Below, piece by piece: positions 11,616 through 44,901 of a stretch of 64,000 bases of DNA (positions are counted from its first letter, which is position 1; every line of letters starts with the position of its first letter). Position numbers and translations under genes: made by a program. Origin of the DNA: an uncultured Pseudomonadales bacterium (GTDB lineage: Bacteria > Patescibacteriota > Microgenomatia > UBA1400 > PJMF01); the NCBI GenBank assembly GCA_964633875.1, contig CAZWKL010000006.1, positions 19,144 to 83,143 on the forward strand, in the 5' to 3' direction. Under the pieces are notes generated by a model, which did no database searches, was not told where the DNA came from, and saw only the letters and a list, made by a program, of their open reading frames with translations.

Positions 11616-11630
11616 GCTGCTAGTGTATCA

Positions 11631-14417: not shown

Positions 14418-15536
14418 TTATTTAAATTCCTCCAGAACAGAGCCAACAAAACGGAAAATTTTGCTATCCGTGGTTTGGGCAGCAATCTCCAACGCCACTT
14501 TTTCATCAATGGTAGTCACCAGTGACTGATAATCTTGGACCGCGGCCAGAGCCAGCTTTTTGCTATCTTTATCTAGTTCGGAAAGAATGTCGTCGAGTAG
14601 CAGCAGCGGTTTGTCGTTCAAAACAGCGGCGGCGTATTGGAGTTCGCAGAACTTCAGCCACAACACCGCCAGGCGCTGCTGGCCGCGCGAGCCGTAGGTA
14701 GCAATATCGCGATACTCACCTTCCATCGAAATGGTAATGTAGAAGTCATCTTTGTGCGGGCCGATGAGGGTGTGGCCAGCGGCAATTTCGCGGTTGGCGT
14801 ACTGGACCAAGCGTTCCGAGGAAATTACCGAAGGTTGATACTCGATGAGAAAGTTGACCGGAAATTTCACCTGGCGGAACTCTTGCAGTAGATCGCGCCG
14901 GTGTTGCTGCATCACTTGGCCGTGTTTGAGCAGGGAAAGATTCCAGTATTCCAGAGTGGTTTTGGGCTGTTCGCCGTCGCGAATTTGAGCGAGGAGTTTG
15001 TTGCGGCGCCGCAGCACTTTTTCATACTCGCCGGCGGCTCTTGAGTACTCCTGATGTAAAGCAGCCAGCGGCGTGTCCAAAAAGCTGCGGCGCCTCCCCG
15101 GAGAACCCTCCACCAGCCGCATATCCTCCGGCCGAAAGACCACGGAATAAAACTTGCCCACGACGTCCTTTTGCCGTCGCCGAATATTATTAACCGAAAA
15201 CAGCCGCTTAGCCGTTTTTTTGCCCTGCACTTCGCCATGCGTCAAGACCGCTTCAATTTCATCAGTACCTGACTCACTATCAGCCAAATCGGCCACCACC
15301 ACTTTAATTCTCCCCAACTCCTCATCAAAACTAATGATCTCCTCAATCTTGCCGGCCCGAAAACTTTCGCCTGTAGCAATCAGCGCCAGCGCCTCCACAA
15401 TCGTGGTCTTACCGCTGGCGTTCGGACCCAAAATAACCGTAGTTTGTTGTGGCAGCTTCAGCGTCAAAGAAGCAATTTTGCGAATATTCTGCAGCGAAAC
15501 ACCATTAATTTTCATGCTGTGAGTATTGTATGCCAC
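14418..15536 (-). CDS. recF: DNA replication and repair protein RecF
   Basis: Walker A GPNASGKTT; SMC-like signature and Walker B LLLLDDILSELD; 372 aa. Confidence 0.85.
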   Translation of the reverse strand: MAYNTHSMKINGVSLQNIRKIASLTLKLPQQTTVILGPNASGKTTIVEALALIATGESFRAGKIEEIISFDEELGRIKVVVADLADSESGTDEIEAVLTHGEVQGKKTAKRLFSVNNIRRRQKDVVGKFYSVVFRPEDMRLVEGSPGRRRSFLDTPLAALHQEYSRAAGEYEKVLRRRNKLLAQIRDGEQPKTTLEYWNLSLLKHGQVMQQHRRDLLQEFRQVKFPVNFLIEYQPSVISSERLVQYANREIAAGHTLIGPHKDDFYITISMEGEYRDIATYGSRGQQRLAVLWLKFCELQYAAAVLNDKPLLLLDDILSELDKDSKKLALAAVQDYQSLVTTIDEKVALEIAAQTTDSKIFRFVGSVLEEFK

Positions 15537-15575
15537 CAGGTGAAAATAACCAAATCAGTTCTGGCCAGCAAAAAC

Positions 15576-17291
15576 TTACTTCTTTTCGATGTTGAAAAAA
15601 GCAAAGCTGCTCTGGGGAATGCGAAGGTTGCCGGGTGCCCTTAAATTAAAAGCTTTCTTAAATTCCGCTCCGCTCATGCTAATGCCGTTGATCGTGACTG
15701 TGCTAGTTGAACCATTGCTCTGCTTGACTGAAACGCTAGTGGCTGAAGAAATCCCACCATGTTTTTTGGCCACTTCACGAAGTTCGCTGTGGCTGTAGGG
15801 ATCGCCACCCCAGCAAGAAGTCGTCACTGGTGAAATCCGCTTAGCTTCATTCGATGAGCCTTTCTTGAGTACCAAGTGAGCATTGACAATATCAGCCATT
15901 TCTTCGGGACTGAGCCAGGGGTTAGAGCGGCCGCAAGTGCTGCCGCTACTGCTGTAGCCCTCACGCCACCAGGCTTTATACAGCCACGGTGAGCCACCGA
16001 TTTTGTCATAGGCTTTGTCGATAAAATTACTGCCGCCACTGCCATCAGTAGTATCCCAACCAATTGGCGAAGCATAACCACCGTGCGTGGAAGCATAGTA
16101 AGTAACCACATCTTCAAGTATTTTGCCCTTAGTATCTTTAACCGCCTGCTTCCAGGCTTCCGGCGGATTGTCTGATTTGGACTTGTTAAACACCTGGCAA
16201 GCTTCGGTAGTGCAAATTTCCTTGCCGTCTTTTTTATAACGGTAAGCATAGGTGCGAGCAGCCACTGCCTGGGCTTTGAGCGCTTCTTTGTCCCAACTCG
16301 AAGGCATTTCGGCAATGCCATAAAGATAATCGGTTTCAAAATCCATGCTGCCGTGACCTGCCACCTTAATGCTGCCGCCCGTATCCTTTTCTACCGGCTC
16401 TTTGCCGTAATAAGCCTTAAGAATTTGCTTGTAATCCTGGCCACTCTTGGCCCGACCGCGAGCGCCATACTGACTCATGCCCTTACGGTGAGTGTAACCG
16501 CCAAAAGAAAAGACTGCAAAGTGACCTCCCGGCGCCGACTCACGAAAGCCCTTGATCGAGGCGTAATAGTCATCGGCCAGTTCACTGTTACCAATCGAGG
16601 CAGTAAACCCACCACTCCTGGCATTAATAATCTCCTGCTGTCTGGCGGAAAGTTCAGCAATCTGGCCGGAAAGCACCTGCTGATAATCTTGAGCTTTAGC
16701 TATCTCACCCTTGAAAAAATCCGCCTGCTCATCAAGTTGCTTTTCCAGACTGGCCAGAGTGATTTGATTCTCTTCCAGCCTGGCCTTGTCGGCTTCCAGT
16801 TGGGCAATGTCGGCCCCAAGCGCCTGAATTAGTTTGTTGTCTTGAGCTTTGGCGGAATTCCGGTAGGCCAAGTCTTTAGTCAACTCCTTGGCGTCATCGC
16901 TGGAAAAAATCAGCAACAGCGGTGAAAAAATGCGCAAACGCTTGTACTGCACCGCGATTCGCTTGGAAAGTACCTGGTATTGATAAGTCATGTCGGCTTC
17001 CCGCTGAGTGATTTCCTCAGCCAACTGGGCGCTCTCGGCCCTGGCACTGGCAATGCCTGCCCGGGCGTTGGCAATCCGCTGCTCCAGGGTTTTTACTTCC
17101 TGCTCCAGCGGGGTAGTGGCCGCCTCAGACAAACTCTTGAGGTGGGCCAGATCGTCAATTTGCTTTTGCAGTTCCTTGACTTGGTCGGCTTGGGCAATAC
17201 CACTAGAAAATAAAAGCGCGCCACTAACCGCAAAGACCATCAGCAGAAGGCTGAGAAATATCAAGAGCTGCTTTTTTTTCAAGATATACAT
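15576..17291 (-). CDS. SpoIID/LytB-domain cell-wall protein with N-terminal signal/TM and long coiled-coil
   Basis: GMSQYGARGRA motif typical of the SpoIID/LytB family. N-terminal hydrophobic segment, then a 250-aa coiled-coil (Q/A/E/L-rich). Confidence 0.55.
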   Translation of the reverse strand: MYILKKKQLLIFLSLLLMVFAVSGALLFSSGIAQADQVKELQKQIDDLAHLKSLSEAATTPLEQEVKTLEQRIANARAGIASARAESAQLAEEITQREADMTYQYQVLSKRIAVQYKRLRIFSPLLLIFSSDDAKELTKDLAYRNSAKAQDNKLIQALGADIAQLEADKARLEENQITLASLEKQLDEQADFFKGEIAKAQDYQQVLSGQIAELSARQQEIINARSGGFTASIGNSELADDYYASIKGFRESAPGGHFAVFSFGGYTHRKGMSQYGARGRAKSGQDYKQILKAYYGKEPVEKDTGGSIKVAGHGSMDFETDYLYGIAEMPSSWDKEALKAQAVAARTYAYRYKKDGKEICTTEACQVFNKSKSDNPPEAWKQAVKDTKGKILEDVVTYYASTHGGYASPIGWDTTDGSGGSNFIDKAYDKIGGSPWLYKAWWREGYSSSGSTCGRSNPWLSPEEMADIVNAHLVLKKGSSNEAKRISPVTTSCWGGDPYSHSELREVAKKHGGISSATSVSVKQSNGSTSTVTINGISMSGAEFKKAFNLRAPGNLRIPQSSFAFFNIEKK

Positions 17292-17367
17292 AAATTTTGT
17301 TCTGGGCTATAATGACTTTCGCCTGCAAGCTTTGCCGAACCCAAGTATTTAGTTTACAATAAAACCA

Positions 17368-18561
17368 ATGTTTCAGAGGCGCGCCTTGCTACTAATTATC
17401 TTTATCATAGCACTTGCTGTCAGCATTGTGACACCCCCTGGTGTGCATGCGGCAGACAGCTGTGAAGACTTTGGTGTGTCAGCCGTGGTGGGTCTGGGGG
17501 GAGTATATCAACTGAACCAAATAAATTCTTTGGAGGTGTCCCTAAATGTTACTGAGCCAAATGAATATTATCTTAATATTTTTAGAGGTATACATTGGAG
17601 AGTGATTGAAACAGAAACAAAACTTCCTGATAGCTCAGGTAGATTATCTTTCTTAATTACTGATCCAAGAGCATTTAATCCTGTTGGTCAGGATTGGCTT
17701 TTTACCAAAACTGCAACGTATCATGTTACTCTTAAAAGGTCAGCAGACGCAAACGCTGTCTGCAAGCTTGGAACATACAAAATTGTTTCTGAAAGAAGCT
17801 GTGAAAATATTCTTATCTACACCGAAAGAGGGGGTCAAATGTGCTATGGTGGAGCGGGCACTCAGGGCTGTTTGGCAAAAGATGATGCATTAAAGATACA
17901 AGTAGTGGGAGTAAGAGATGGAATAGATTACTACCAAGATAGAGTAGATATACAAGTAAATGGAACTGGTGCGCCAGGCAATAAAAATAATATTCCACTT
18001 GATTCTTCTGGTAGCACGCAGGTGATCGAATATGGATCGCTAAGGGCTGGTCATTACAGAGTTGTTGTAGAAAAAGCCAGTATTCTGAATGGGTTAGATT
18101 TTTGTACAAAAGACTTTGTAATTAATGACAAGTGTACTGTCTGCCAAGAACAAGCCCCAGATCCTACCATACCGGGAGAAGGACCAGATGAGGTTGCTTT
18201 TCAACTCTGCCGGCAATTACCGGAAGGATCAGATGCATACAACAACTGTATTGAGTGCGCTGAAGGAGAAGAGGGTCAAGAGGGTGTCTGGACTGCAGTG
18301 GGCTGTATTAAAAGAGAGCCGGAATCAATTCTAGCTGAACTGCTAAGTATCGGCCTGACCACAGGTGGTGGAATAGCACTCTTAATGATTCTTGGAGCTG
18401 GTTTTATCTTCAGCACTTCTGCCGGTGATCCCAAGCGTGTTGATCAAGCAAAAGAACTAATAACCAGCGCCGTGATTGGTTTGATTTTTATAATTTTTTC
18501 AATCGCGATGCTTGAATTTATAGGCTTTACAGTACTAAAAATACCTGGTTTTGGAGGTTGA
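17368..18561 (+). CDS. VirB2/TrbC-like T4SS pilin-family protein with large Cys-rich ectodomain (paralog 1 of 11)
   Basis: Signal peptide; about 300-aa Cys-rich extracellular region; C-terminus SAGDPKRVDQAKELITSAVIGLIFIIFSIAML with two TM helices flanking a basic loop. Confidence 0.5.
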   Translation: MFQRRALLLIIFIIALAVSIVTPPGVHAADSCEDFGVSAVVGLGGVYQLNQINSLEVSLNVTEPNEYYLNIFRGIHWRVIETETKLPDSSGRLSFLITDPRAFNPVGQDWLFTKTATYHVTLKRSADANAVCKLGTYKIVSERSCENILIYTERGGQMCYGGAGTQGCLAKDDALKIQVVGVRDGIDYYQDRVDIQVNGTGAPGNKNNIPLDSSGSTQVIEYGSLRAGHYRVVVEKASILNGLDFCTKDFVINDKCTVCQEQAPDPTIPGEGPDEVAFQLCRQLPEGSDAYNNCIECAEGEEGQEGVWTAVGCIKREPESILAELLSIGLTTGGGIALLMILGAGFIFSTSAGDPKRVDQAKELITSAVIGLIFIIFSIAMLEFIGFTVLKIPGFGG

Positions 18562-19133
18562 AACCTATGAAATCTTATTTCAAATATTTTTTCATATTTT
18601 CAGTTCTGACAGCAATTGTGCTGTTCAAATCTCCTGATGTGTTAGCTGAATGTGGATATGGTGTTACAACAGCAACAGGAGATGCGTGTGATCTTCAAAA
18701 CGGCCAAACAAAAAGCTCCGGTTATTTTTACTGTGATGCCGACATGACTCTCTGTTGCACAAAAGCCAGTGAATGTCCGGCAGGTTCTGACCCAATGCCT
18801 GTCAGCCTTAGTCCATATCAAGGCCCCACAACAGAATTTTTCAACGCACTCAACCCTTTATACACTCATGGCAACCAAGAAAGCGCCACCCTCACCACTC
18901 CCGGGGCAGTGGTATCACGTGTCTTGCGTTACGCCCTGCCAATAGCCGGTATGATCCTCTTCGTCATGCTCTTGTGGGGAGGTTTTGAGATCCTGGTTGG
19001 TTCGGCTGGCAAGAAATCCCTGGATGCCGGCAAGCAAAGAATTACCGCCGCTTTTGTTGGCTTCATCCTACTGTTCGTTTCCTACTGGATTATGCAAATT
19101 CTTGAAATTATTTTTGGAATTTCCATCGTTTAG
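18558..19133 (+). CDS. VirB2/TrbC-like T4SS pilin-family protein (paralog 2 of 11)
   Basis: Signal peptide; Cys-rich N-domain; conserved C-terminus GSAGKKSLDAGKQRITAAFVGFILLFVSYWIM. Start overlaps the stop of paralog 1 (ATGA). Confidence 0.5.
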   Translation: MKPMKSYFKYFFIFSVLTAIVLFKSPDVLAECGYGVTTATGDACDLQNGQTKSSGYFYCDADMTLCCTKASECPAGSDPMPVSLSPYQGPTTEFFNALNPLYTHGNQESATLTTPGAVVSRVLRYALPIAGMILFVMLLWGGFEILVGSAGKKSLDAGKQRITAAFVGFILLFVSYWIMQILEIIFGISIV

Positions 19134-19849
19134 TTGCCGCCAAACCGGCGGTTCCGGTGCTGAAATTCTTCCACCAACTCTCCCAATCTTTCAGGCGTAA
19201 AGTCCGGAAAACTAAATTCCGGAAAAAAATACTCGGCGTACTCACTTTGCCAGGACATAAAACCGGAAAGTCTGAATTCGCCGCTGGTTCTGATAATCAT
19301 ATCCGGACGAGGCAGGCCGGCGGTATCCAAATGCTGCTCAATCACTTGCTGGTTAATTTCGTCCGCCCCCACTTCTCCGGCAGACACCTTCTGCGCAATT
19401 TTAGTCATGGCCCGCACCAATTCGTCATGACCGCCATAATTCATGGCCAACGTCACTGTCAGAGTTTTGTTGTTTTTGGTTTCCTCTTCGCCTTTGGCAA
19501 TTCTTTCCTGAATATCCGGAGCCAAACCGGAGCGGTTACCAATCACCCTCACGCGAATATCTTTTTCGCCTAGTTTTTTAATCTTGTGATCAAACATGTA
19601 TCTGAATAAATTCATCAGCCACTCAATTTCTTCTTTGTCGCGATCCCAGTTTTCCGTGCTGAAAATCCAAAAAGTTATGTAGGGAATATTGAGATCAACG
19701 GCGGCATCAACCAATTTTTCAAAAGTTTCCTTAACTGCGAAATCGTGCCCTTTGAAAACCGGCAAGCCTTTGCCGCGCGCCCAACGGCGGTTACCATCGC
19801 AAATAATGGCTATATGTTGGGGATAATTATCTTTTTTTGTTTTTTTCAT
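19130..19849 (-). CDS. uppS: undecaprenyl diphosphate synthase (cis-isoprenyl transferase)
   Basis: IAIICDGNRRWAR motif and the conserved downstream blocks of cis-prenyltransferases. Confidence 0.85.
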   Translation of the reverse strand: MKKTKKDNYPQHIAIICDGNRRWARGKGLPVFKGHDFAVKETFEKLVDAAVDLNIPYITFWIFSTENWDRDKEEIEWLMNLFRYMFDHKIKKLGEKDIRVRVIGNRSGLAPDIQERIAKGEEETKNNKTLTVTLAMNYGGHDELVRAMTKIAQKVSAGEVGADEINQQVIEQHLDTAGLPRPDMIIRTSGEFRLSGFMSWQSEYAEYFFPEFSFPDFTPERLGELVEEFQHRNRRFGGN

Positions 19850-19858
19850 TTTAACCTT

Positions 19859-20734
19859 TTAGCTAATTAAGCCATTAGCTTTCTTGTATTTATAGCTAGC
19901 GAAACTGCTCGCCCCCTCAATACTACTAACCAAAGTACCCACAAATTCCTGGCCAACGAGGCAATTATAAAGATTTTTCGGCTGTAAACCAGAGATAATC
20001 ATCACCTCAATGCCGTTTTTTGCCTGGAGCAGCGACTCTTCAATCTTGTGACCCATGCCGCCGGTCACATCAAAGCCTCTGGTAGCAGCAATCGCCGAGC
20101 GCACCTCATCCAGATTGTTTTCCGAAATTTCCCGGATCACCCGGCCATTTTTGTCCATCACTCCAGGCACTTCGGTTACATGAATAATTTTGCTAATCTT
20201 AAAATCTGAAAACTTCGGCAACTCAACCGCAATATGCCCCAACACTTTTTCCGTCGACCAAATGGTGCAGCCGCGGCTGGTATCCACGATTACATCGCCA
20301 CCGGTTACCGGCAACAAGCCTTTGTGCAGATACTGGCGCAGCACTTCCGCGTTCCAGCTGGCGGCCTGTTGGTTTTCGGTCACCAAAGTATTGCTGTAGC
20401 AATAGCTAATGGCCGGCAAGTGCGCCGACAAAAACTCCCGCACCACAATTCGGTTAAGTTGTAGAGCACTGTCTTGAGTCACCGCCATGCCAAAAACGCT
20501 GTCCTCACGAATAAAACCCTCCTTTGTCTGATACTGCATTGCTGGCGCGTGGGCAAAACTACCTTGACCGTGGCCGACCAGATATTTCTGGCCAGTTTCA
20601 GCCTGCGCCAAAGCAATTTCCCGCACCAAGCGACTGAGATTTTCTTCCCGCACCATCATCGGCACTTCTTTATTGGTGATGACTGAACCGCCGAGTTTAA
20701 TTAAGGTAAGTTGCTGGTTCATATTCTCCTTCAC
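19859..20734 (-). CDS. isopentenyl phosphate kinase-like (amino acid kinase family)
   Basis: N-terminal LIKLGGSVITNK and HGQGSFAH motifs match the IPK family; operon context with uppS. Confidence 0.55.
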   Translation of the reverse strand: MKENMNQQLTLIKLGGSVITNKEVPMMVREENLSRLVREIALAQAETGQKYLVGHGQGSFAHAPAMQYQTKEGFIREDSVFGMAVTQDSALQLNRIVVREFLSAHLPAISYCYSNTLVTENQQAASWNAEVLRQYLHKGLLPVTGGDVIVDTSRGCTIWSTEKVLGHIAVELPKFSDFKISKIIHVTEVPGVMDKNGRVIREISENNLDEVRSAIAATRGFDVTGGMGHKIEESLLQAKNGIEVMIISGLQPKNLYNCLVGQEFVGTLVSSIEGASSFASYKYKKANGLIS

Positions 20735-21335
20735 TTAAATTTAGTTTGTTTAGGAAATCTGTCAGATAAATCAGGCCGTGAACATATGGTCTAAAGGTCA
20801 TGCCGCGCTCAACTGCTTGATTAATCTCAAAAATCAAATCATGATCCATTAAATAACGATGTTGTTCGTCAGAAAGCTCGACCACAAATTGATGCAATCT
20901 GTAAACTCCCCGCGGCTCATACTCGCCAGTTTCATTATTCTTTTTAATTTGATATACCAGGAAATTTTCAATTTTATCAGCTTCTTCACTCACCAAATTA
21001 AAAAACGCAAAAATTTGAGCAAAAGTTTCCGTATCATAGATTGCAGTTCTGACAAGAAGTTCTCGCAATTCCTCATGTAATTCACGAAAAAAAGCTTCGG
21101 TCAAGGACTCTCCTTCTTCGACTACTCCGCCGGGAAACTCCAAATTGGCATGGCCAGGAGAATAATCGTCCAGCACCACTCCCTTATCAATTCCTCCAGA
21201 CACAATTTTCTTTGGATACTCAAACTTGCCACCATTATCCTGGATGTTCGTTTTCATGGCATAGAAATCGCCATTGTGGCCAAAAACGCCAAAAACTCCA
21301 TCTTTAATTCTAATTCCCTCAGATTCTTGCTGCAT
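20697..21335 (-). CDS. NUDIX hydrolase (possibly IPP isomerase type 1-like given operon context)
   Basis: Nudix box GGVVEEGESLTEAFFRELHEELREL. Start taken at the internal Met; the ORF-track start is 21395. Confidence 0.5.
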   Translation of the reverse strand: MQQESEGIRIKDGVFGVFGHNGDFYAMKTNIQDNGGKFEYPKKIVSGGIDKGVVLDDYSPGHANLEFPGGVVEEGESLTEAFFRELHEELRELLVRTAIYDTETFAQIFAFFNLVSEEADKIENFLVYQIKKNNETGEYEPRGVYRLHQFVVELSDEQHRYLMDHDLIFEINQAVERGMTFRPYVHGLIYLTDFLNKLNLSEGEYEPATYLN

Positions 21336-21418
21336 AACAAAACTCCCCTTTGTGAGGCGATACATTAGTCGCAAAAAACAGCAGAAATCACGCAAATTGC
21401 TTTGAAAACTCCTTGCAA

Positions 21419-21763
21419 CTAGCCATAAATGCGGTCAAAACGAATCAGCAAATACAAAAGCAGCACTTGCCAATACAAGCAGAAAAAAGTAATCCAGTTA
21501 GAGAGAAAAGGCAGCCACTCGCAACTAAATGAGCTGGTGCTGCAGGTAAAAAACATTTGCACTACCGGCACCAGCAAAAACCGCCAACCAATAGTAATCA
21601 AGGCCAAAATCAGAGAAGGTAACAGCGTCATCCAGACGAAAACTTTGTCACGCACCAACGACTGCATGGTTTGGTAAGGGTGAAGCAGCAAACCGCCCGA
21701 AATTTGGGCAAGTGCATAAATTATGGAAGTAATTGCCTGGCCTGCGTGCATTTTATGTTTCAA
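21419..21763 (-). CDS. hypothetical membrane protein downstream of the sigma/anti-sigma pair
   Basis: 114 aa with three hydrophobic helices; overlaps the upstream ORF by 11 nt. Confidence 0.3.
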   Translation of the reverse strand: MKHKMHAGQAITSIIYALAQISGGLLLHPYQTMQSLVRDKVFVWMTLLPSLILALITIGWRFLLVPVVQMFFTCSTSSFSCEWLPFLSNWITFFCLYWQVLLLYLLIRFDRIYG

Positions 21764-21947
21764 ATCTCTTAAAAATTTCTAAAACCAAAGCAGAAATAAA
21801 GGATAGAGCTGCCAAAACTTGCCAAGCATAATTGCCAATAACGGCAGTAAGCGGATCAAGTTGGCGGGGTAACAGGCGCTCTTCATTTAGCCTGGCTTGT
21901 AACTTGGCTTCTTGCTGCAATTTAGTAATAAACTTGGTGTTTTTCAT
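21753..21947 (-). CDS. putative anti-sigma factor (small helical + TM protein)
   Basis: 64 aa starting 4 nt after the sigma-factor stop; C-terminal TM helix. Position is typical of ECF anti-sigma factors. Confidence 0.3.
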   Translation of the reverse strand: MKNTKFITKLQQEAKLQARLNEERLLPRQLDPLTAVIGNYAWQVLAALSFISALVLEIFKRFET

Positions 21948-21950
21948 GAT

Positions 21951-22535
21951 TTAGCTCTCCGTCCCATACTCAGCTTGCCACAGCACCCGAAATTCTTCTC
22001 TGGCTCTAAATAAATCGGACTCCACAGCCTTACTAGTCCTGTCCAGCTCCCGGGCAATAGCAGCTACTTTTTTGCCTTCGACATACTTCATCACCAGCAG
22101 ATTTTTGTAGCCGCGGCGCATTTTATTGAGCACAAGCCTGACTTGCTGGGAAATTTCATGCGAATCATGGACCTCTCTACTTAACAACCACTCATGAAGC
22201 GGTAACGTTTCCAAGGTTTTCTTGGCGTAAATTTTGCGGTAGTAATCGGCAACTTCATGCCTGGCAATAGAGTTCATCCAGGTCCAAATACTCGAGTCAC
22301 CCCGGAAAAGTGGCAAGTGTTTCAGGCAATTAAGAAAAGTTTCCTGAACTATTTCCTCAGCGTCTTTAGGATTGGAAACTTTCACCAAAACCACCGCCAG
22401 CAGCCGGTCATAATATGAATTGAACCACTCCTGCACCGCCAGTTTTTCACCTGCTCGCAAACGTTCAAGCAGCTGACTGTCTTTTTTAGTAGCTTTGTTG
22501 GTAGTGGCGCCTGTAGCGCCAATATTCCTAACCAT
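21951..22535 (-). CDS. ECF-type RNA polymerase sigma factor (sigma-70 family regions 2 and 4)
   Basis: Region 2-like EEIVQETFLNCLKHLPLF...WTWMNSIARHEVADYY and region 4 HTH LLVMKYVEGKKVAAIARELDRTSKAVESDLFRAR. Confidence 0.75.
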   Translation of the reverse strand: MVRNIGATGATTNKATKKDSQLLERLRAGEKLAVQEWFNSYYDRLLAVVLVKVSNPKDAEEIVQETFLNCLKHLPLFRGDSSIWTWMNSIARHEVADYYRKIYAKKTLETLPLHEWLLSREVHDSHEISQQVRLVLNKMRRGYKNLLVMKYVEGKKVAAIARELDRTSKAVESDLFRAREEFRVLWQAEYGTES

Positions 22536-22580
22536 AGGTACTAGTATACCTCAACTGTGCTGTAGTATAATATTTTGGTG

Positions 22581-22943
22581 ATGTTGAATAAGCTCGTGCG
22601 TCCGATCTATGCCCAATGTGATCCAGGAAAAGGCAATGTCAATTTGGGTGATTGTTTGGTTTTGAGAGATGACAGAACTATTGCCGAGGTGTATTCCGAA
22701 CCCGCCTTCCTCATTAACCTTCTAGCTCAGAACATTTTCGCCATCGCCGGCGTGGTGTTGTTTTTTATGCTTTTGTTAGCAGGATTTAAATTTGTGGCCG
22801 GCGGCAAAAAGGGTGCCGAAGACGCCAAGAGTATTCTTACCACAGCGATTATCGGCTTCATTATCATGTTTACCGCCTACTGGATTGTGGTGTTGGTAGA
22901 AATTATTACTGGGATAAATATTCCTGTTGGACCCGCGGGATAG
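22581..22943 (+). CDS. VirB2/TrbC-like T4SS pilin-family protein (paralog 3 of 11)
   Basis: Two TM helices flanking GGKKGAEDAKSILTTAIIGFIIM. The ORF-track start 22575 is TTG; the ATG at 22581 lies 9 nt after TATAAT (22566-22571). Confidence 0.5.
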   Translation: MLNKLVRPIYAQCDPGKGNVNLGDCLVLRDDRTIAEVYSEPAFLINLLAQNIFAIAGVVLFFMLLLAGFKFVAGGKKGAEDAKSILTTAIIGFIIMFTAYWIVVLVEIITGINIPVGPAG

Positions 22944-22954
22944 GGATATAAGGC

Positions 22955-23374
22955 ATGAGAGCATCAATTACAACCAAACTACTTCTACTGCTTGCTGTTT
23001 TTGTCTTTTTATTGCCCATGGCAACACCGGCATTTTCTCAAAATTTAGGTCACATTTTCCCCCCACCAGGAGTCAATCAATATCAAGCAGAAGCTGGACT
23101 CACCCATGACCAACCAGCCCTAATCTTCTTTCTTTCAAGAATGATTAGGCTAATTACCGTCGTTGTCGGGCTGTGGGTAATTGTTAATATTACCATAGCC
23201 GCCTTTCACTATATTTCTGGCAGTGGTAGCGCGGAAGCTCACGCTAAAGTACGCAATTTATTAACAATGAGTGTGGCAGGGCTGCTCTTAATAATTGCTT
23301 CCTACACTATTGGCGGTATCCTGGGACTGATTTTCTTTGGGGACGCCACTTATATTTTGAATCCGACGATATAG
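22955..23374 (+). CDS. VirB2/TrbC-like T4SS pilin-family protein (paralog 4 of 11)
   Basis: Signal peptide; C-terminal GSGSAEAHAKVRNLLTMSVAGLLLIIASYTI ... LIFFGDATYILNPT. Confidence 0.5.
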   Translation: MRASITTKLLLLLAVFVFLLPMATPAFSQNLGHIFPPPGVNQYQAEAGLTHDQPALIFFLSRMIRLITVVVGLWVIVNITIAAFHYISGSGSAEAHAKVRNLLTMSVAGLLLIIASYTIGGILGLIFFGDATYILNPTI

Positions 23375-23388
23375 AATAGAAAAACTAA

Positions 23389-23955
23389 ATGATAAAAATA
23401 CTGATAAAACTAACTTTAAGTCTAATTATCCTCGCTGGAGTTATGTTTTCTGTTCCAGCTTATGCCTATGCCCAATGTTCACCAGCTACTGAAGGAGATT
23501 GTGTCAATGGATACATTTGTGTTTGTGGAGAAATTGAAGAGTCCGACGGATCAACGCAAACATATTGCTATCGTGACTCCGCACAATACTGTGGTTCAGA
23601 AAAAGGATTGCAGGTAATTGGACCTATTAGGGCCCCTGATGCGGTTGCTCGATTTAACATTATTAGTACTTCGCATGTTGGTTTGGTGCCATTCCTCTCG
23701 ATCATCATCCGCCTCATCACCATTGTCGCCGGCATCTTTACCATGTTGAATTTTGTGGCTGCTGGGGCCAAATACGTGTTTTCCATGGGCAATACTAACG
23801 CCAATGTTGAAGTGCGGGACAAGTTGCTCTTTAGCGTCATTGGCCTGCTGATTATTGTGGCCTCCTACACCATTGCTGCTTTATTCGGACTGATTTTCTT
23901 TGGGGACGCCACTTTTATCTTGAGGCCAACCTTTACTGGAGCTCTTGACTTATAA
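23389..23955 (+). CDS. VirB2/TrbC-like T4SS pilin-family protein (paralog 5 of 11)
   Basis: Signal peptide; Cys-rich N-domain; C-terminal tail ...LIFFGDATFILRPT nearly identical to the tail of paralog 4. Confidence 0.5.
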   Translation: MIKILIKLTLSLIILAGVMFSVPAYAYAQCSPATEGDCVNGYICVCGEIEESDGSTQTYCYRDSAQYCGSEKGLQVIGPIRAPDAVARFNIISTSHVGLVPFLSIIIRLITIVAGIFTMLNFVAAGAKYVFSMGNTNANVEVRDKLLFSVIGLLIIVASYTIAALFGLIFFGDATFILRPTFTGALDL

Positions 23956-23976
23956 AAATAGGAAATATCAGGTAAA

Positions 23977-24384
23977 ATGAAACAAAAGAAAGCGCCTATG
24001 CCTTTTTGGACACTGATCGCACAAACAGAACTCGGTAGATTTGAGCCTCCTACTGATAGCTTTAGTGAAGGCTCTGACACCACCGAGGGAGCCTTGAGCA
24101 ACTTGGAGCTAATTATTTCCAATTCCTTGGGAGTGATCACTGTTTTAGCTGGGGTCTTCTTTATTTTCTATTTCATTATGGGCGCGTTTCAAATTTTGTC
24201 CGCCGGCGGCGATTCCGGCAAAGTCCAAAGCGGCCAGCAAAGAATTACTCAGGCAGTACTTGGCTTGGTGATTTTGGTAGCTGCTTACGCCATTATTGGT
24301 TTGATTAGCACCGTGCTCGGCCTCAGCCTACTCAATCCTGCTCAAGTCATTCAAGAAAGCTTAATTCCAGGAGGAGGATCATGA
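23977..24384 (+). CDS. VirB2/TrbC-like T4SS pilin-family protein (paralog 6 of 11)
   Basis: SAGGDSGKVQSGQQRITQAVLGLVILVAAYAII between two TM helices. Confidence 0.5.
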   Translation: MKQKKAPMPFWTLIAQTELGRFEPPTDSFSEGSDTTEGALSNLELIISNSLGVITVLAGVFFIFYFIMGAFQILSAGGDSGKVQSGQQRITQAVLGLVILVAAYAIIGLISTVLGLSLLNPAQVIQESLIPGGGS

Positions 24385-24797
24385 ACTTAAAGAAAACCGC
24401 CGCCCAAATTACCCTCTCCTTTAGCACCATGTTAGCTAGTACTTCAGCTGCTCTGGCTCAGATTACCAATCCCGCCATCGGCAACTTAAGTGACACTGAA
24501 GAAGCCGAATCGGGCACTTTGTTCGTGCGGATTTTTATTCAGCTCTGGAACGTCATCATTACTGTTGGCGCGATCATTGTAATTTTCATGTTTTTGTGGG
24601 GAGCGATTGAGTGGATTACCGCGGGCGGTGATTCCGGTAAAATTCAGAGCGCCCAAAAGCGGCTTACCCATGCAGCCTTAGGTCTTTTTCTGCTGGTAAT
24701 GTCTTTTGCTATTATTGAATACATTAGTTACATCTTCTTTGATGGAGAATTTAATATTCTTAACTTAACCCTACCAACAGTAGGTTCGGGAGACTAA
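24381..24797 (+). CDS. VirB2/TrbC-like T4SS pilin-family protein (paralog 7 of 11)
   Basis: Signal peptide; WGAIEWITAGGDSGKIQSAQKRLTHAALGLFLLVMSF; overlaps the previous gene by 4 nt. Confidence 0.5.
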   Translation: MNLKKTAAQITLSFSTMLASTSAALAQITNPAIGNLSDTEEAESGTLFVRIFIQLWNVIITVGAIIVIFMFLWGAIEWITAGGDSGKIQSAQKRLTHAALGLFLLVMSFAIIEYISYIFFDGEFNILNLTLPTVGSGD

Positions 24798-24800
24798 ATT

Positions 24801-25307
24801 ATGTTTAAAAAGAAATTGCTAATAATTTTTACCGCTCTGGCTTTGACACTGACTTCGATCTCAGCGCTAATGATCTCTCCGGAGCCAATGCTGGCGGCCG
24901 ACGAGGCTGGCGCTGGCTTTGGTGGTGGAAGCCAGGATGAAAGCAACAAGAGTATTCAGCTCAATCTGGGTCAGGAAGCCATCGAAAAGGAACTTCCTGG
25001 CAGCGCCAGTTCCGAGGAAGGCAGCCAGACTGCTGGGTTTAGTTATTGGCTTGGTCGAGCCATGTCTATTATTTTAATTGTCGCTGCGCTGCTGGTTTTG
25101 GTCAATTTACTTATGGGCGCCATCAAGTGGATTACCGCGGGCGGTGATTCTGGTAAATTGTCTGAGGCACAAAAACAAATCACCAGCTCCATTATTGGTC
25201 TGATCGTGTTGGCAGCGGTAGTCGCCATCTTCCAGCTGTTGACGGATTTTTTACAGTTAGACTTTATTACTTTTACTAACTCTAGTCCGCAGACAGAGCT
25301 TGACTAA
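24801..25307 (+). CDS. VirB2/TrbC-like T4SS pilin-family protein (paralog 8 of 11)
   Basis: Signal peptide; MGAIKWITAGGDSGKLSEAQKQITSSIIGLIVLAAV. Confidence 0.5.
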   Translation: MFKKKLLIIFTALALTLTSISALMISPEPMLAADEAGAGFGGGSQDESNKSIQLNLGQEAIEKELPGSASSEEGSQTAGFSYWLGRAMSIILIVAALLVLVNLLMGAIKWITAGGDSGKLSEAQKQITSSIIGLIVLAAVVAIFQLLTDFLQLDFITFTNSSPQTELD

Positions 25308-25371
25308 GCACTTCAAGTACTAGTATAATTTTGGTATCGTCTGTATCTTGTAAAATTAACAAAAGGAGATT

Positions 25372-25773
25372 ATGACACAAAACCTTAAACGAATTGCTGT
25401 TGGCGCCGGAGCCTTAGCAACCTCAGCAACAGCTGTTTTTGCAGCAGATGAAATAAGTATTAGAACACCTACCGGATTTTTTGATAACATGGGAACCCTG
25501 ATCAGCGGCCTGCTGAACTTTGTGATAATCATCGCCGCTCTCCTGGTATTCATTTACCTACTGTGGGGAGGAATTGAATGGATCACCTCAGGTGGTGATA
25601 AAGGCAAAACCGAGAGCGCTCGGAATAAGATCACCTCTGCTATTATTGGGTTGATCGTCTTAGCCGCCGCCTGGGCGCTACTGACTATCATTCTCAACTT
25701 CCTTGGTTATGACAACCTCCAACAAGTGTTCAACTTAAACATTGAAGAAGCTACTAGCGGAAATCAGAATTAA
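25372..25773 (+). CDS. VirB2/TrbC-like T4SS pilin-family protein (paralog 9 of 11)
   Basis: Signal peptide; WGGIEWITSGGDKGKTESARNKITSAIIGLIVLAAAWALL. Own TATAAT (25324-25329) and RBS AGGAG (25364-25368); followed by an intrinsic terminator. Confidence 0.55.
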   Translation: MTQNLKRIAVGAGALATSATAVFAADEISIRTPTGFFDNMGTLISGLLNFVIIIAALLVFIYLLWGGIEWITSGGDKGKTESARNKITSAIIGLIVLAAAWALLTIILNFLGYDNLQQVFNLNIEEATSGNQN

Positions 25774-25795
25774 GAAGAACTAGTAATAGTTTCGC

Positions 25796-25825
25796 AAAAA
25801 CCCCCTTTTACTAGGGGGTTTTTGG
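25796..25825 (+). terminator. Rho-independent terminator after pilin paralog 9
   Basis: AAAAACCCCCT-tttact-AGGGGGTTTTT: 6-bp GC stem, 6-nt loop, T-run downstream and A-run upstream (potentially bidirectional). Confidence 0.6.
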
Positions 25826-25848
25826 TTAAAATAGGTTATAATAACTCC

Positions 25849-26409
25849 ATGAAACAAATGTTATTGCTACTTATTCTGGCGGCAGCCGTGGTATTTTTAG
25901 CTGGCAACGCTAACGCTGATAGTCCTGAAAATTTAGCCAGCAACCGCCTGTACACGATTGTGGATCAAGAAACCGGAGAAGTGGTGAGCACCACCTCCGC
26001 GGAAACTATTTACTATGCTACCACTTCTGCCTTAAGGGCCGATTCCACCTCTGTGCCTACAACTACTACGCCTAGACGAGGACTTTTTTACCCGATTGAC
26101 ATTATCATTCCACGGGGTTTCTTCGATAACATTTCTGAACTAATCAATGGCCTTCTCCGGCTCTTAATGATTGTTGCCGCTCTTTTGGTTTTTGTTTACC
26201 TGCTTTGGGGAGGGATAGAGTGGATTACTTCCGGCGGTGACAAAGGCAAAACCGAGAGCGCTCGGAATAAAATTACCTCTGCTATTATTGGTTTGATTAT
26301 TATGGCTGCCGCCTGGGCACTGCTGACTATCGTGTTGAATTTCCTGGGCTACGCCGGTTTGGAAGACGTGCTCAACCAAAACATCAATGAAGCCGTGTCA
26401 AGACAGTAG
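25849..26409 (+). CDS. VirB2/TrbC-like T4SS pilin-family protein (paralog 10 of 11)
   Basis: ORF-track 25822..26409 starts inside the terminator; the Met at 25849 begins signal peptide MKQMLLLLILAAAVVFLAG. The C-terminal 80 aa are about 85% identical to paralog 9. Confidence 0.55.
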   Translation: MKQMLLLLILAAAVVFLAGNANADSPENLASNRLYTIVDQETGEVVSTTSAETIYYATTSALRADSTSVPTTTTPRRGLFYPIDIIIPRGFFDNISELINGLLRLLMIVAALLVFVYLLWGGIEWITSGGDKGKTESARNKITSAIIGLIIMAAAWALLTIVLNFLGYAGLEDVLNQNINEAVSRQ

Positions 26410-26831
26410 TGTTATACTATAGCTATATGTTTAAGCGCCTTGCTTTCACTTTGTTCACATTTCTCACTGCCAGTGCGTTGCTACTAAGCGTGCCGGCTCA
26501 AGCCGCCGCCCAATCGCAGGTGTGGGATGGTGTCTGCGTAGAAGAAGGAGATGTCGCTACCATCCAGGGCCTAGAGTGCTTGATTGCTAACATTTTTGCC
26601 GTGATTATCACTCTGATTGGCTTTGCCGGCTTTGTGATGTTCATTATTGGTTCTTTTCGTTGGATGCTGTCAGGTGGCAGCAGTAAAGGCGTGGAAACCG
26701 CCCGCAACACTATGACTTACGCGGTGGTGGGATTGGTAGTAGCCCTCAGTGCTTTTATTATTCTGAACCTAATTGCCGACTTTACCGGAGTAGGAGTGAT
26801 TACTAAATTTTTCATCCCCAGGTCCAATTAA
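26409..26831 (+). CDS. VirB2/TrbC-like T4SS pilin-family protein (paralog 11 of 11)
   Basis: Signal peptide; IGSFRWMLSGGSSKGVETARNTMTYAVVGLVVALSAFIIL; start overlaps the previous stop. Confidence 0.5.
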   Translation: MLYYSYMFKRLAFTLFTFLTASALLLSVPAQAAAQSQVWDGVCVEEGDVATIQGLECLIANIFAVIITLIGFAGFVMFIIGSFRWMLSGGSSKGVETARNTMTYAVVGLVVALSAFIILNLIADFTGVGVITKFFIPRSN

Positions 26832-27069
26832 TTTATAAATTAGCAATAGAGTTCAAATACACCGGCGCATAAAAAAGACACACTATTGATTTTCTCTTAA
26901 TATGGTATGCAGTCATTTTCAATGTAAACCATATTAAGGCCAGACAAGGGAAGTTTGAGGGTCGCAATTGGCTTTCCAGTAAAGAGGCGCTGCAGCGGTA
27001 TGTCAAAAATAGAGAACGAATGAGGTAAGGGGTTGGTTCCACCCCACCAATACCTGATATAATTGGCTT

Positions 27070-36628: not shown

Positions 36629-36719
36629 AAAGAATTATACCACCACTTGAGAAATTACGCACATAAGCAATAGCTTTTTATGCCAACCGCGCCAACCGTG
36701 TTTGCGGTATAATTGCCTC

Positions 36720-44807: not shown

Positions 44808-44901
44808 ACCCCAAGTCCGGGTCTCAGGTTTGGGCAGAAGCAAACTTGGCTTTTAAGGCCGGTCTTTATCAGTCCGTGCAATTAAAGTACAATGTCAATT
44901 G

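Follow-up and report, generated by a model that had tools for sequence, protein, structure and literature searches.

Conjugative pilins of the VirB2/TrbC family (PF04956) include the Agrobacterium T-pilin and RP4 TrbC. In Patescibacteria, 441 arrays of 2–11 “VirB2-like” genes have been described, most abundantly in Microgenomatia and Saccharimonadia (PMC12102498), and arrays are also reported in PMC10633639; published examples are SEML1_0014–0019 of Southlakia epibionticum ML1 and the “Sec secreted array” of TM7x. The locus studied here lies in a 64-kb stretch of DNA (the window) from a Patescibacteria genome that is Microgenomatia/Woesebacteria-like (CPR), and is a T4SS_pilin (PF18895) array of the kind already published in ultra-small Patescibacteria. 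It shares with the published arrays the PF18895 family, tandem divergent paralogues that are ~25% identical there and here, and a chromosomal MPF_FATA-like T4SS near dnaA. In contrast, its eleven genes are at the top of the published range and are split 2+9. The published accounts consulted mention neither positional orthology of array members nor a separate transcription unit for one of them, and neither Ig-like ectodomains nor the replacement of ectodomains between strains; in the text of PMC12102498, the word “ortholog” is absent and “recombination” appears only in unrelated contexts.

An earlier note had listed eleven plus-strand pilin ORFs within 17368–26831, and all were found where it placed them. 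They are given here with the block that interrupts them.

17368–18561, + strand: pil1, 397 aa; signal peptide, two Ig-like beta-sandwich domains, Cys-rich knot, pilin hairpin
18558–19133, + strand: pil2, 191 aa; signal peptide, Cys-rich ectodomain (6 Cys), pilin hairpin
19130–22535, − strand: interrupting block outside the pilin system; UppS, amino-acid-kinase-fold protein, NUDIX, two small TM ORFs, ECF sigma factor (Pfam)
22575/22581–22943, + strand: pil3, 122/120 aa; short N-region and pilin hairpin
22955–23374, + strand: pil4, 139 aa; signal peptide and pilin hairpin
23389–23955, + strand: pil5, 188 aa; signal peptide, Cys-rich ectodomain (6 Cys), pilin hairpin
23977–24384, + strand: pil6, 135 aa; acidic N-tail without signal peptide, pilin hairpin
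24381–24797, + strand: pil7, 138 aa; pilin
24801–25307, + strand: pil8, 168 aa; pilin, Gly/Ser/Glu-rich ectodomain of ~60 aa
25372–25773, + strand: pil9, 133 aa; shortest ectodomain, most conserved array member
25822–26409, + strand: pil10, 195 aa; Ser/Thr-rich ectodomain of ~70 aa, then a pil9-like C-module
26409–26831, + strand: pil11, 140 aa; final pilin of the array

The genes are packed tightly or overlap, with 4-nt overlaps at pil1/pil2 and pil6/pil7, and co-transcription is thereby implied. The earlier note described two blocks with an unrelated minus-strand separator. The content of the separator was as described, but the array was not originally in two blocks: the interrupting genes are missing from the contiguous arrays of lineages L002–L004, and L014 carries only UppS and the kinase at this position. 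Both blocks therefore derive from a single ancestral array that an insertion divided after pil2, which is a new finding.

All eleven proteins end alike, in a membrane hairpin of two helices joined by a short, charged, Gly/Lys-rich loop; the motifs quoted earlier (GGDSGK/GGDKGK, GGKKGAEDAK and SGSAEAHAK) and the Cys-rich strings were all found. Pairwise identity over the C-terminal ~95 aa is 13–76%, with a mean of ~26%; the C-module of pil10 is 76% identical to that of pil9, and pil4 is closest to pil5 (46%). Identity as low as 13%, the lack of a Pfam match for pil5 and the score of only 17 bits for pil4 would fit unrelated small membrane proteins that resemble each other by chance through hydrophobic composition, an explanation to which we give almost no credence. 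When an HMM of ten C-modules was run against the eleventh, the scores were 38–102 bits (E 4e-11 to 4e-31; pil2 58, pil4 53.5 and pil5 49 bits), whereas none of the 755 remaining six-frame ORFs of the window, among them MFS, Lgt and an 8-TM protein, exceeded 8.5 bits. Furthermore, the alignment shows conserved Gly and Lys/Arg positions in the loop and conserved A/T/G positions in helix 2, and the eleven array positions are found again in other genomes. Chance resemblance is refuted by the leave-one-out HMM and the window-wide search for copies, and generic TM composition fails to explain the similarity. No further pilin copies were found in the window.

The N-terminal regions, which the earlier note called unrelated in sequence, revealed no significant similarity to each other except in the pre-TM1 segment of pil9 and pil10. 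Its description of these regions as secreted must be narrowed, because pil3 and pil6 have no signal-peptide-like N-terminus by hydropathy and orthologue alignment. Only the signal-peptide tail (IYAQ↓C) is kept in pil3; its orthologues in L002 and L004 have a full signal peptide and a Cys-rich extension, and repeat D14 connects pil3 with the cleavage region of pil5.

The “T4SS pilin” Pfam family from Patescibacteria that the earlier note named is the right one. PF18895 matches ten of the eleven proteins (pil1 25.3, pil2 24.8, pil3 29.8, pil4 17.2, pil6 28.3, pil7 27.4, pil8 28.7, pil9 45.4, pil10 48.1 and pil11 31.9 bits), seven of them over the gathering score, and pil5 has no match in Pfam. 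The VirB2/TrbC identity proposed at the same time could not be demonstrated: PF04956 scored only 15–18 bits against a cut-off of 27.9, hhalign gave probabilities of 0.8–2%, a profile search of PDB sequences found no pilin, and fold searches were compatible with a pilin but not specific. Neither sequence nor profile comparison thus established homology to VirB2/TrbC. The array proteins have no significant sequence or profile similarity to VirB2/TrbC or to the archaeal conjugative pilin of Aeropyrum pernix (PDB 8dfu). They differ from VirB2/TrbC also in the monoderm host, in being eleven paralogues rather than one, and in the N-terminal ectodomains of up to ~290 aa that several carry and classical VirB2 lacks.

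The locus is within an origin-proximal, chromosomal, monoderm-type T4SS cluster, with a T4CP-like gene upstream of the array and PrgI/VirB3-like, VirB4-like, dnaA and dnaN genes downstream.

684–3026, − strand: VirD4-like coupling-protein candidate (PF10412 TrwB_AAD_bind, 31.7 bits, cut-off 20.5)
27070–30498, + strand: 1142-aa secreted protein, 27 Cys; no Pfam match and no known domain
31605–33464, + strand: 619-aa protein, ~8 TM segments by hydropathy; conserved synteny, no Pfam match
36702–40940, + strand: membrane protein of 1412 aa; M23 peptidase-like region and NAGPA-like region (Pfam, both sub-threshold: 26.3 against a cut-off of 28.7 and 23.0 against 25)
42195–43460, + strand: PrgI (VirB3-like; PF12666, 27.2 bits, cut-off 27)
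44899–46965, + strand: VirB4-like ATPase (PF19044 E 8e-24, AAA_10 E 1e-14), directly upstream of dnaA
47116–48738: dnaA

The 619-aa protein may be a VirB6/PrgH-like channel component, and the 1412-aa protein is a candidate cell-wall hydrolase of the T4SS, as its domain matches suggest. The 1142-aa protein holds the same position in L001–L004 and L014.

We consider it probable that the eleven genes are the pilin set of a Microgenomatia T4SS, forming a heteromeric surface structure with pil9 as the major subunit and pil1, pil2 and pil5 as exchangeable host-contact subunits. Most of the pilins would be exported by Sec, with the N-terminal domain and the C-terminus facing outward and the loop in the cytoplasm. 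The T4SS would extract the subunits and build from them a single heteromeric structure on the cell surface, whose likeliest form is a filament and in which pil9 would be abundant and the others low-copy and specialised. Host contact would be made via the tandem Ig-like domains of pil1 and the small disulfide-rich domains of pil2 and pil5, whose ectodomains would be exchanged by homologous recombination anchored in conserved flanks. If this is true, ectodomain exchange retunes host or surface recognition while the assembly modules are untouched. Published data also favor this reading: all six Southlakia pilin genes individually scored essential in Tn-seq (PMC10633639, Table S1), although for upstream operon genes such scores may reflect polar effects, and in Patescibacteria metatranscriptomes, T4SS-pilin genes ranked with the most strongly expressed of the genes whose function is unknown (PMC10936435). 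Points against it are the lack of a recognisable signal peptide in pil3 and pil6 and the 18 kb between the array and virB4. To our knowledge, PF18895 proteins have not been seen to form a filament in any organism, and pilus assembly is inferred. The proteins could instead be membrane-anchored surface proteins or channel parts, with the hairpin as a conserved anchor or T4SS-docking module that displays different ectodomains on the cell surface, or as a membrane-embedded ring or stalk of the secretion channel, and no filament. We regard this as unlikely, though well within consideration; in its favor, monoderm T4SSs are generally without pili (PMC12102498; PMC12857230), neither sequence nor profile searches link the proteins significantly to VirB2/TrbC, the match in fold lacks specificity, and a packed filament would hardly have room for the 290-aa ectodomain of pil1 on each of its subunits.

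Within the pilin-set reading, three features make pil9 the candidate major subunit: its ectodomain is the shortest, its conservation is the highest in the array, and in every lineage a separate promoter-like site and terminator flank it.

25300–25329, + strand: promoter-like site before pil9 (TTGACT, 18 nt, TATAAT; 11/12 consensus match)
25802–25825, + strand: intrinsic-terminator-like hairpin and T-run directly 3′ of pil9

The promoter-like site is the best match within 17000–27200; both elements are consensus matches, and the total count of promoter-like sites in the region is not above that in shuffles. A comparable −35/−10 or extended −10 lies in the gap before the pil9 counterpart of L001–L004 and L014, and a strong GC hairpin with a T-run follows it in 5/5 of these lineages, with differing stem sequences. 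This separate promoter-like site and terminator is a new observation. Homologues of pil9 number 1027, the best 120 of which are 52–99% identical; the loop WGGIEWITSGGDKGKTESARNKIT is nearly invariant across 25 homologues, and the AF2 model of the hairpin has pLDDT > 90.

Five further lineages (L001–L004 and L014) were compared. Position-matched reciprocal best hits were obtained in L001–L004 for pil1–7, pil9 and pil11; pil8 matched the right position in three of these four, reciprocally only with L001, and for pil10 only L001 and L003 have an orthologue. In L014, the gene at the matching position is the best match for each of the eleven. Orthologues in distant lineages are 30–63% identical (pil11 61–63%) versus 13–46% for paralogues, pil9/pil10 excepted, and the arrays of L002–L004 are flanked likewise by recF/SpoIID-like and 1142-aa neighbours. 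All eleven genes are intact and under purifying selection, with omega of 0.01–0.08 for every C-module and 0.02–0.38 for N-parts (pil3 0.03–0.08). Judged from these comparisons, the genes are an anciently conserved fixed set with positional orthologues in five lineages, pil10 being missing in L002 and L004. The positional orthology and the selection on all eleven are new.

These results bear on the phase or antigenic variation suggested earlier, in which interchangeable paralogues, one or few of them expressed, would arise by recent duplication and rapid divergence. The many paralogues with unrelated ectodomains and the real allelic replacement at pil1, pil2 and pil5 fit such a repertoire, and published arrays have been read by analogy with VirB2 paralogues of Bartonella and Anaplasma (PMC12102498). 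However, positional orthologues persist in five lineages while the 1142-aa neighbour is only ~28% identical in L002–L004, and the eleven genes are intact, under purifying selection and, as their spacing implies, co-transcribed. Silent cassettes are absent from the 64 kb, SSRs and homopolymer tracts from the array genes, and neither convincing inverted repeats nor invertible elements were found; eight of the eleven genes are 94–100% identical between sister strains. The essential Tn-seq scores of all six Southlakia pilin genes (PMC10633639, Table S1) also argue against a repertoire. Orthology, selection and the absence of cassettes, SSRs and invertible elements largely refute variation among paralogues, which we consider very improbable. 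In the VirB2 expansions of Bartonella and Anaplasma phagocytophilum, divergent pilin paralogues likewise lie beside a T4SS, and a role in contacting different host surfaces has been proposed for their variation (PMC12102498); in contrast to those lineage-specific amplifications, the genes here are anciently fixed positional orthologues, and strain variation proceeds via allele replacement at three of them.

The AF2 model of pil1 (pLDDT 82.6) contains two beta-sandwich domains, with intimin D0-D1 as the best Foldseek match (E 2e-5), suggesting that pil1 is a candidate adhesin-bearing subunit with tandem Ig-like domains. In the pil1 family (81 members), the C-modules fall into one cluster and the ectodomains into 18. 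FimH and PapG are two-domain tip adhesins of chaperone-usher pili, and minor-pilin sets occur in type IV pili and type II secretion systems. By analogy, pil1, pil2 and pil5 may resemble FimH or PapG in having an adhesin domain fused to a pilin domain, with allelic variation concentrated in the receptor-binding domain; one abundant major subunit and a fixed low-copy set sharing an assembly module would follow the same logic as in both these adhesins and the minor-pilin sets. The folds and assembly machines are unrelated, and the analogy is functional only.

Strain-level replacement was compared among three genomes: the window, its sister strain L006, and L001; a second strain series contained no variation for testing. 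Two recombination tracts were delimited by nucleotide identity.

17187–18860, no strand assigned: ~1.7 kb, divergent allele of pil1 and 5′ pil2 in the window relative to L006
23330–23750, no strand assigned: ~0.4 kb, pil5 ectodomain only, with a different allele in L006

The ectodomains called hypervariable in the earlier note vary between strains in pil1, pil2 and pil5 only, and the other eight genes are those conserved at 94–100%; its exposed-domain diversification is thus supported in a narrower form, as divergent Cys-rich alleles at pil1/pil2 and pil5, and not as a large variable array. Sister-strain identity is 62% in the N-part and 98% in the C-module of pil2, and 35% and 99% in pil5. 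Between the window and L006, nucleotide identity is 100% to 17186, 22–47% over 17187–18170, 76–90% in the pil1 C-module, 56–60% in the pil2 N-part and 97–100% from 18861 on, while L006 and L001 are 71–88% identical throughout this tract. In the pil5 tract, the window and L006 are 38–46% identical over 23403–23663 with both flanks at 100%, and the window and L001 91–94% against a background of ~83%. The groupings are therefore incongruent, with L006 joining L001 at pil1/pil2 and the window joining L001 at pil5. The abrupt fall of identity at the ectodomains and this incongruence support replacement via recombination, between near-identical strains, of only the pil1/pil2 and pil5 Cys-rich ectodomains, which is new, as are the tandem Ig-like domains predicted on pil1. 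For pil5, dS is lower in the N-part (0.27) than in the C-module (0.86).

The earlier note had described eleven co-directional pilin genes with a common C-terminal architecture. Our analysis located all eleven (pil1–pil11) as plus-strand ORFs, together with the loop motifs and Cys-rich strings quoted for them. All eleven end in two strongly hydrophobic segments with a short loop between them, as judged by hydropathy, and this hairpin is also seen in the AF2 models of pil9 and pil1. The locus is arranged as follows.

684–3026: VirD4-like coupling-protein candidate
14418–15536: recF
17368–19133 (+): pil1 and pil2
19130–22535 (−): interrupting block, with UppS, an amino-acid-kinase-fold protein, NUDIX, two small TM ORFs and an ECF sigma factor
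22575–26831 (+): pil3 to pil11
27070–30498 (+): secreted Cys-rich protein of 1142 aa; the other 3′ neighbours of the array are an 8-TM protein and a 1412-aa membrane protein
42195–43460: PrgI/VirB3-like protein
44899–46965: VirB4-like ATPase, directly followed by dnaA and dnaN

The C-terminal ~95 residues (C-module) could be aligned in all eleven proteins, and the regions before the hairpin (N-parts) had no significant mutual BLAST match; the sole match upstream of the hairpin covers ~19 residues just before helix 1 in pil9 and pil10. Pairwise identity among the C-modules is 13–76% (mean ~26%), the closest pairs being pil9/pil10 (76%), pil4/pil5 (46%) and pil8/pil9 (45%). In a leave-one-out analysis, an HMM built from ten C-modules retrieved the eleventh at 38–102 bits, while the best other ORF of the window reached no more than 8.5 bits among ~755 six-frame ORFs, which include an MFS transporter, Lgt and an 8-TM protein. 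The similarity could in principle have arisen by chance, or from the generic composition of membrane helices in small proteins, and this difference in scores excludes that explanation. No further copies of the C-module were found in the 64-kb window.

PF18895 (T4SS_pilin) was the top Pfam match for 10 of the 11 genes. Seven reached the gathering score of 26.6 bits (pil3, 29.8; pil6, 28.3; pil7, 27.4; pil8, 28.7; pil9, 45.4; pil10, 48.1; pil11, 31.9), three fell below it (pil1, 25.3; pil2, 24.8; pil4, a weak 17.2), and pil5 had no PF18895 match. The leave-one-out HMM, at 38–58 bits, groups the four weak genes with the others, and pil5 is, from its C-module, clearly a paralogue of pil4. On these profile scores, the eleven proteins are members of PF18895. 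The secreted N-termini proposed for the whole array were found in part: nine of the eleven have a signal-peptide-like hydrophobic core by hydropathy, strong in seven and weaker in pil7 and pil9, with nothing of the kind in pil3 and pil6. An invariant KIPGFGG closes the proteins of the pil1 family (window 18535–18561), and similar (I/L)P-x-G-rich tails end pil3, pil6 and pil7 (IPVGPAG, IPGGGS and LPTVGSGD). Such tails could serve as a signal for processing or recognition. In classical T-pilin and TrbC, the C-terminus is processed and the protein cyclised.

Homology to VirB2/TrbC, which had been read from the topology, was not demonstrated by PF04956, profile searches or hhalign. The only pilins with a PF04956 match, a weak one, were pil9 (15.3 bits) and pil10 (17.9 bits), both below its gathering score of 27.9 bits, and the pil10 alignment lies on the signal-peptide region; membership of PF04956 fails in the tests run. 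The hhalign comparison of the pil9-family profile with Agrobacterium tumefaciens VirB2, a query 100% identical to Ti-plasmid records, gave a probability of 2.1% (E 0.023). A 64-sequence C-module profile compared with a small VirB2-side profile (n = 6, five further TrbC/VirB2 genes having been added) gave 0.8% (E 0.069). In both runs, the best alignment was topologically in register over the pre-helix segment, helix 1, loop and helix 2. A search of all PDB sequences with a 25-sequence pil9-family profile found no pilin, only chance matches to CD20 (E ~3). AF2 models pil9 with confidence as a helical hairpin (pLDDT >90 for residues ~50–100), for which Foldseek returned nothing with E <2 in the PDB. 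We infer that these pilins work like VirB2 in topology, size and gene context.

The virB4 gene lies 18 kb downstream of the end of the array, and the synteny of the genes between them is conserved. The association with VirB4/VirB3-type T4SS genes that is expected of PF18895 members was found in the window. Homologues of pil9 and pil1 occur in MAGs named Woesebacteria, Pacebacteria, Microgenomates or “Patescibacteria group”. The neighbouring genes and the hosts of the homologues thus place the window in the T4SS region near the origin of a Microgenomatia (CPR) chromosome. The 1412-aa membrane protein has M23 and NAGPA matches near the Pfam threshold, and a Pfam search of six unannotated neighbours at E up to 1 yielded nothing usable.

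Loci of this kind have been described before. In a survey of 3,035 Patescibacteria genomes with PF18895 and PF04956, Quinonero-Coronel et al. (2025) reported 441 “VirB2 arrays” of 2–11 pilin genes, spread over 383 assemblies and commonest in Microgenomatia and Saccharimonadia; the mean within-array identity was 25%, and the T4SS often lay near dnaA (PMC12102498). The eleven genes of the window stand at the top of that range. By analogy with Bartonella and Anaplasma, the same authors proposed antigenic variation or adaptation to different hosts (PMC12102498). The model put forward here, a fixed heteromeric set with a single candidate for the major subunit and three adhesin-bearing members that recombine, is absent from the published accounts consulted.

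Related genomes were fetched with the 1142-aa neighbour as an anchor. They comprise a close relative (L001, ~83% nucleotide identity to the window), three distant lineages whose anchor protein is only ~28% identical (L002–L004), a sister strain (L006, 96–99.8% nucleotide identity) and, as a sixth genome for orthology, another lineage on a 1.08-Mb scaffold whose pil9 is 63% identical (L014). Every related genome carries 10–11 genes that match the C-module HMM. Position-matched reciprocal best hits to pil1–pil7, pil9 and pil11 were found in all four of L001–L004; the hit of pil8 falls on the expected gene in three of these genomes, with the reciprocal hit going to pil9 outside L001, and an orthologue of pil10 occurs in L001 and L003, whereas L002 and L004 lack it. 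In L014, the best window match lies at the corresponding position for all eleven genes. Orthologues from distant lineages are 30–63% identical, more alike than the paralogues within the window. Between the window and L001, dN/dS is 0.01–0.08 for every C-module and 0.02–0.38 for every N-part (dS ~0.6–1.5), and by these ratios all eleven genes, the truncated pil3 included, are maintained. Rapid lineage-specific turnover of paralogues was therefore not seen, given these positional best hits in L001–L004 and L014 and an omega well below 1.

The two blocks of the earlier note are indeed separated by the UppS-to-sigma block, and this break after pil2 is shared by the window, L001 and L006. In L002–L004, the array runs without a break from the recF/SpoIID-like genes to the gene for the 1142-aa protein, which indicates that the blocks are one array split by insertion. 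L014 is interrupted by UppS and the kinase only; it has no ECF sigma module, and L002–L004 lack the entire block. The ECF sigma gene and two small TM ORFs of 64 and 114 aa (21419–22535, minus strand) lie inside the array in this lineage only, and the two ORFs are possibly an anti-sigma module.

Hypervariability of the ectodomains between close strains was borne out for three genes. The N-parts of pil1, pil2 and pil5 differ strongly between the window and L006, while those of the other eight are 94–100% identical.

Protein identity between the window and the sister strain L006 (N-part; C-module)
pil1: 30%; 93%
pil2: 62%; 98%
pil5: 35%; 99%
other eight pilins: 94–100%; 96–100%

At the nucleotide level, the two strains are 100% identical up to 17186, then 22–47% across the pil1 ectodomain, 76–90% in the pil1 hairpin, 56–60% in the pil2 ectodomain and 97–100% from 18861, whereas L006 and the outgroup L001 retain their usual 71–88% over the pil1/pil2 stretch. 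In pil5, identity to L006 drops to 38–46% over 23403–23663 between flanks that are both 100% identical; the same segment of the window is 91–94% identical to L001, above the ~83% background, and its dS is 0.27 versus 0.86 in the hairpin. These abrupt boundaries and incongruent relationships identify the change as allele replacement by homologous recombination and not as in-situ mutation. The second strain series available around a pil9 orthologue (L014–L018) is at least 99.7% identical throughout and offered no ectodomain variation to compare.

The three pilins with exchanged domains are also the richest in cysteine, with 12 residues in pil1 and six each in pil2 and pil5; two are present in each of pil3 and pil11, and the remaining six pilins lack cysteine. 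The pil1 model (pLDDT 82.6) comprises a signal peptide, two beta-sandwich domains (residues ~37–140 and 147–253), a small Cys-rich element and the hairpin. Its best PDB matches are intimin D0–D1, transglutaminase C-terminal barrels and macroglobulin MG domains (E ~2e-5). Ten cysteines are invariant or nearly so among 41 aligned members of the pil1 family. Across 81 full-length members, the ~130-aa Cys-knot-plus-hairpin forms one BLAST cluster and the ectodomains form 18.

The paralogue set might instead be read as a repertoire for antigenic or phase variation, as the earlier note had also suggested. All eleven genes are complete ORFs. By tblastn, no silent donor cassettes with alternative pil1, pil2 or pil5 ectodomain alleles were found in the 64 kb; the pilin genes and their immediate surroundings have no SSRs or tandem repeats, no homopolymers of at least 7 nt occur inside the genes, and the inverted repeats are short and imperfect, none of them convincing. 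The lack of cassettes and switch features in the window indicates that ectodomains are exchanged between genomes and not by an intragenomic switch. With the fixed positional orthology, it largely refutes the repertoire reading, which we now consider very improbable.

In a second surface protein, too, the central segment has been replaced: the secreted SpoIID-domain protein encoded beside pil1 (15576–17291, minus strand) is also mosaic between the window and L006, especially over 15939–16604. It has no nucleotide match over 15939–16408 and 72% identity over 16408–16520, between flanks of 87.6% (15000–15939) and 99.8% (16604–17196). The background identity of the two strains changes stepwise over 15000–28591 (87.6%, 99.8%, 95.9% and 98.4%), which suggests frequent homologous recombination across the whole locus, beyond the pilin ectodomains.

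Among the eleven genes, pil9 has its own set of putative transcription signals. Most genes of the array overlap or lie 3–22 nt apart; pil9 is preceded by a 64-nt gap that holds the best sigma-70-like match of the region (TTGACT, 18 nt, TATAAT) plus AAGGAG, and it is followed by a GC hairpin and a T-run. In L001–L004 and L014, a gap of 87–151 nt at the same position contains a −35/−10 or extended −10 match, and a strong hairpin with a T-run follows the pil9 stop codon, its stem sequence differing between lineages. That these signals are kept without sequence conservation argues for function; as pattern matches only, the promoter and terminator are predicted. In addition, pil9 has the shortest ectodomain of the array, and its loop, WGGIEWITSGGDKGKTESARNKIT, is nearly invariant among 25 homologues at 51–85% identity. 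In metatranscriptomes of Patescibacteria enrichments, T4SS-pilin genes ranked with the most strongly expressed genes whose function is unknown (PMC10936435). Taken together with the PF18895 score, these features make pil9 the candidate for the abundant major subunit.

We propose a mechanism for the locus that we consider rather more probable than not. The grounds are the conserved hairpin, the eleven fixed position-matched paralogues under purifying selection, the operon-like packing, the linkage to a monoderm-type T4SS near oriC, the pattern of transcription signals at pil9, and the recombining Ig-like and Cys-rich ectodomains. After Sec export, the N-terminal domain and the C-terminus would lie outside and the mildly basic loop inside; a VirB4-type machine would pull the hairpins from the membrane and stack them as a heteromeric structure on the cell surface, most probably a filament. 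In that structure, pil9 would be the major subunit, and pil1, pil2 and pil5 would be host-contacting subunits, FimH/PapG-like by analogy. A bolder reading, possible but less likely than not, is that a monoderm bacterium assembles all eleven hairpin pilins, distinct and fixed since ancient times, into a heteropolymeric T4SS filament, with one pil9-type major subunit and ten specialised ones, three of which would bear modular disulfide-rich or Ig-like adhesin domains whose exchange between strains by recombination would retarget host cells. As the main alternative, the same proteins may stay in the membrane as anchors or channel parts. We consider this less likely; it accords with the unproven link to VirB2 and with the published accounts of the PF18895 family, in which no filament has been visualised (PMC12102498, PMC10633639, PMC12857230).

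If such a heteropolymeric filament is confirmed, it would represent a conjugative-type pilus of a new architectural class and provide a concrete molecular handle on host specificity in CPR. In the one genetically tractable Patescibacterium, epibiotic life depends on the T4SS and its pilin array. In Table S1 of Wang et al., the six Southlakia genes SEML1_0014–0019 are all growth-defective or essential (PMC10633639). These six individual scores fit non-redundancy, with polar effects as a caveat for all but the last gene. The present locus argues for a fixed, non-redundant set of subunits, against the published reading by Bartonella analogy as antigenic variation or host adaptation. Our model singles out the pil9 type as the candidate major pilin and the outer domains of pil1, pil2 and pil5 as the only recombining parts of the array.

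At the array break, pil3 has lost its signal peptide and Cys-rich extension, both still present in the L002 and L004 orthologues; it retains only “...IYAQ|C”, which matches the cleavage region of pil5. Despite keeping only these last signal-peptide residues, it is under strong purifying selection (omega 0.03–0.08). Its start lies 40 nt from the divergent ECF sigma gene, and a perfect TATAAT (22566–22571) stands 4–10 nt before its TTG, GTG and ATG start candidates, so the pil3 mRNA may be leaderless. The pil6 orthologues of L002 and L004 begin with a classical signal peptide, which is missing in the window, L001 and L003; there, an acidic N-tail of ~50 aa would have to cross the membrane without one. 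The pil10 gene is carried by the window, L001, L003, L006 and L014 and shares a direct repeat of 254 nt (74%) with pil9, of which it appears to be a younger duplicate with an added Ser/Thr-rich ectodomain of ~70 aa.

The 1142-aa protein has 27 cysteines and no Pfam domain, and its gene lies directly downstream of the array in L001–L004 and L014. Only its central part (residues ~317–966) is conserved in the distant lineages, at ~28% identity, and the protein may belong to the system as an additional surface component. Upstream of the region, an ATP-dependent DNA ligase of 622 aa and a Fic-domain protein of 363 aa (9747–12722, minus strand) appear unrelated to the pilins. The MAG records of L001, L003 and L004 are titled “uncultured Pseudomonadales bacterium” although the locus is of the Microgenomatia type; the deposited bins were apparently given the wrong taxonomic label.
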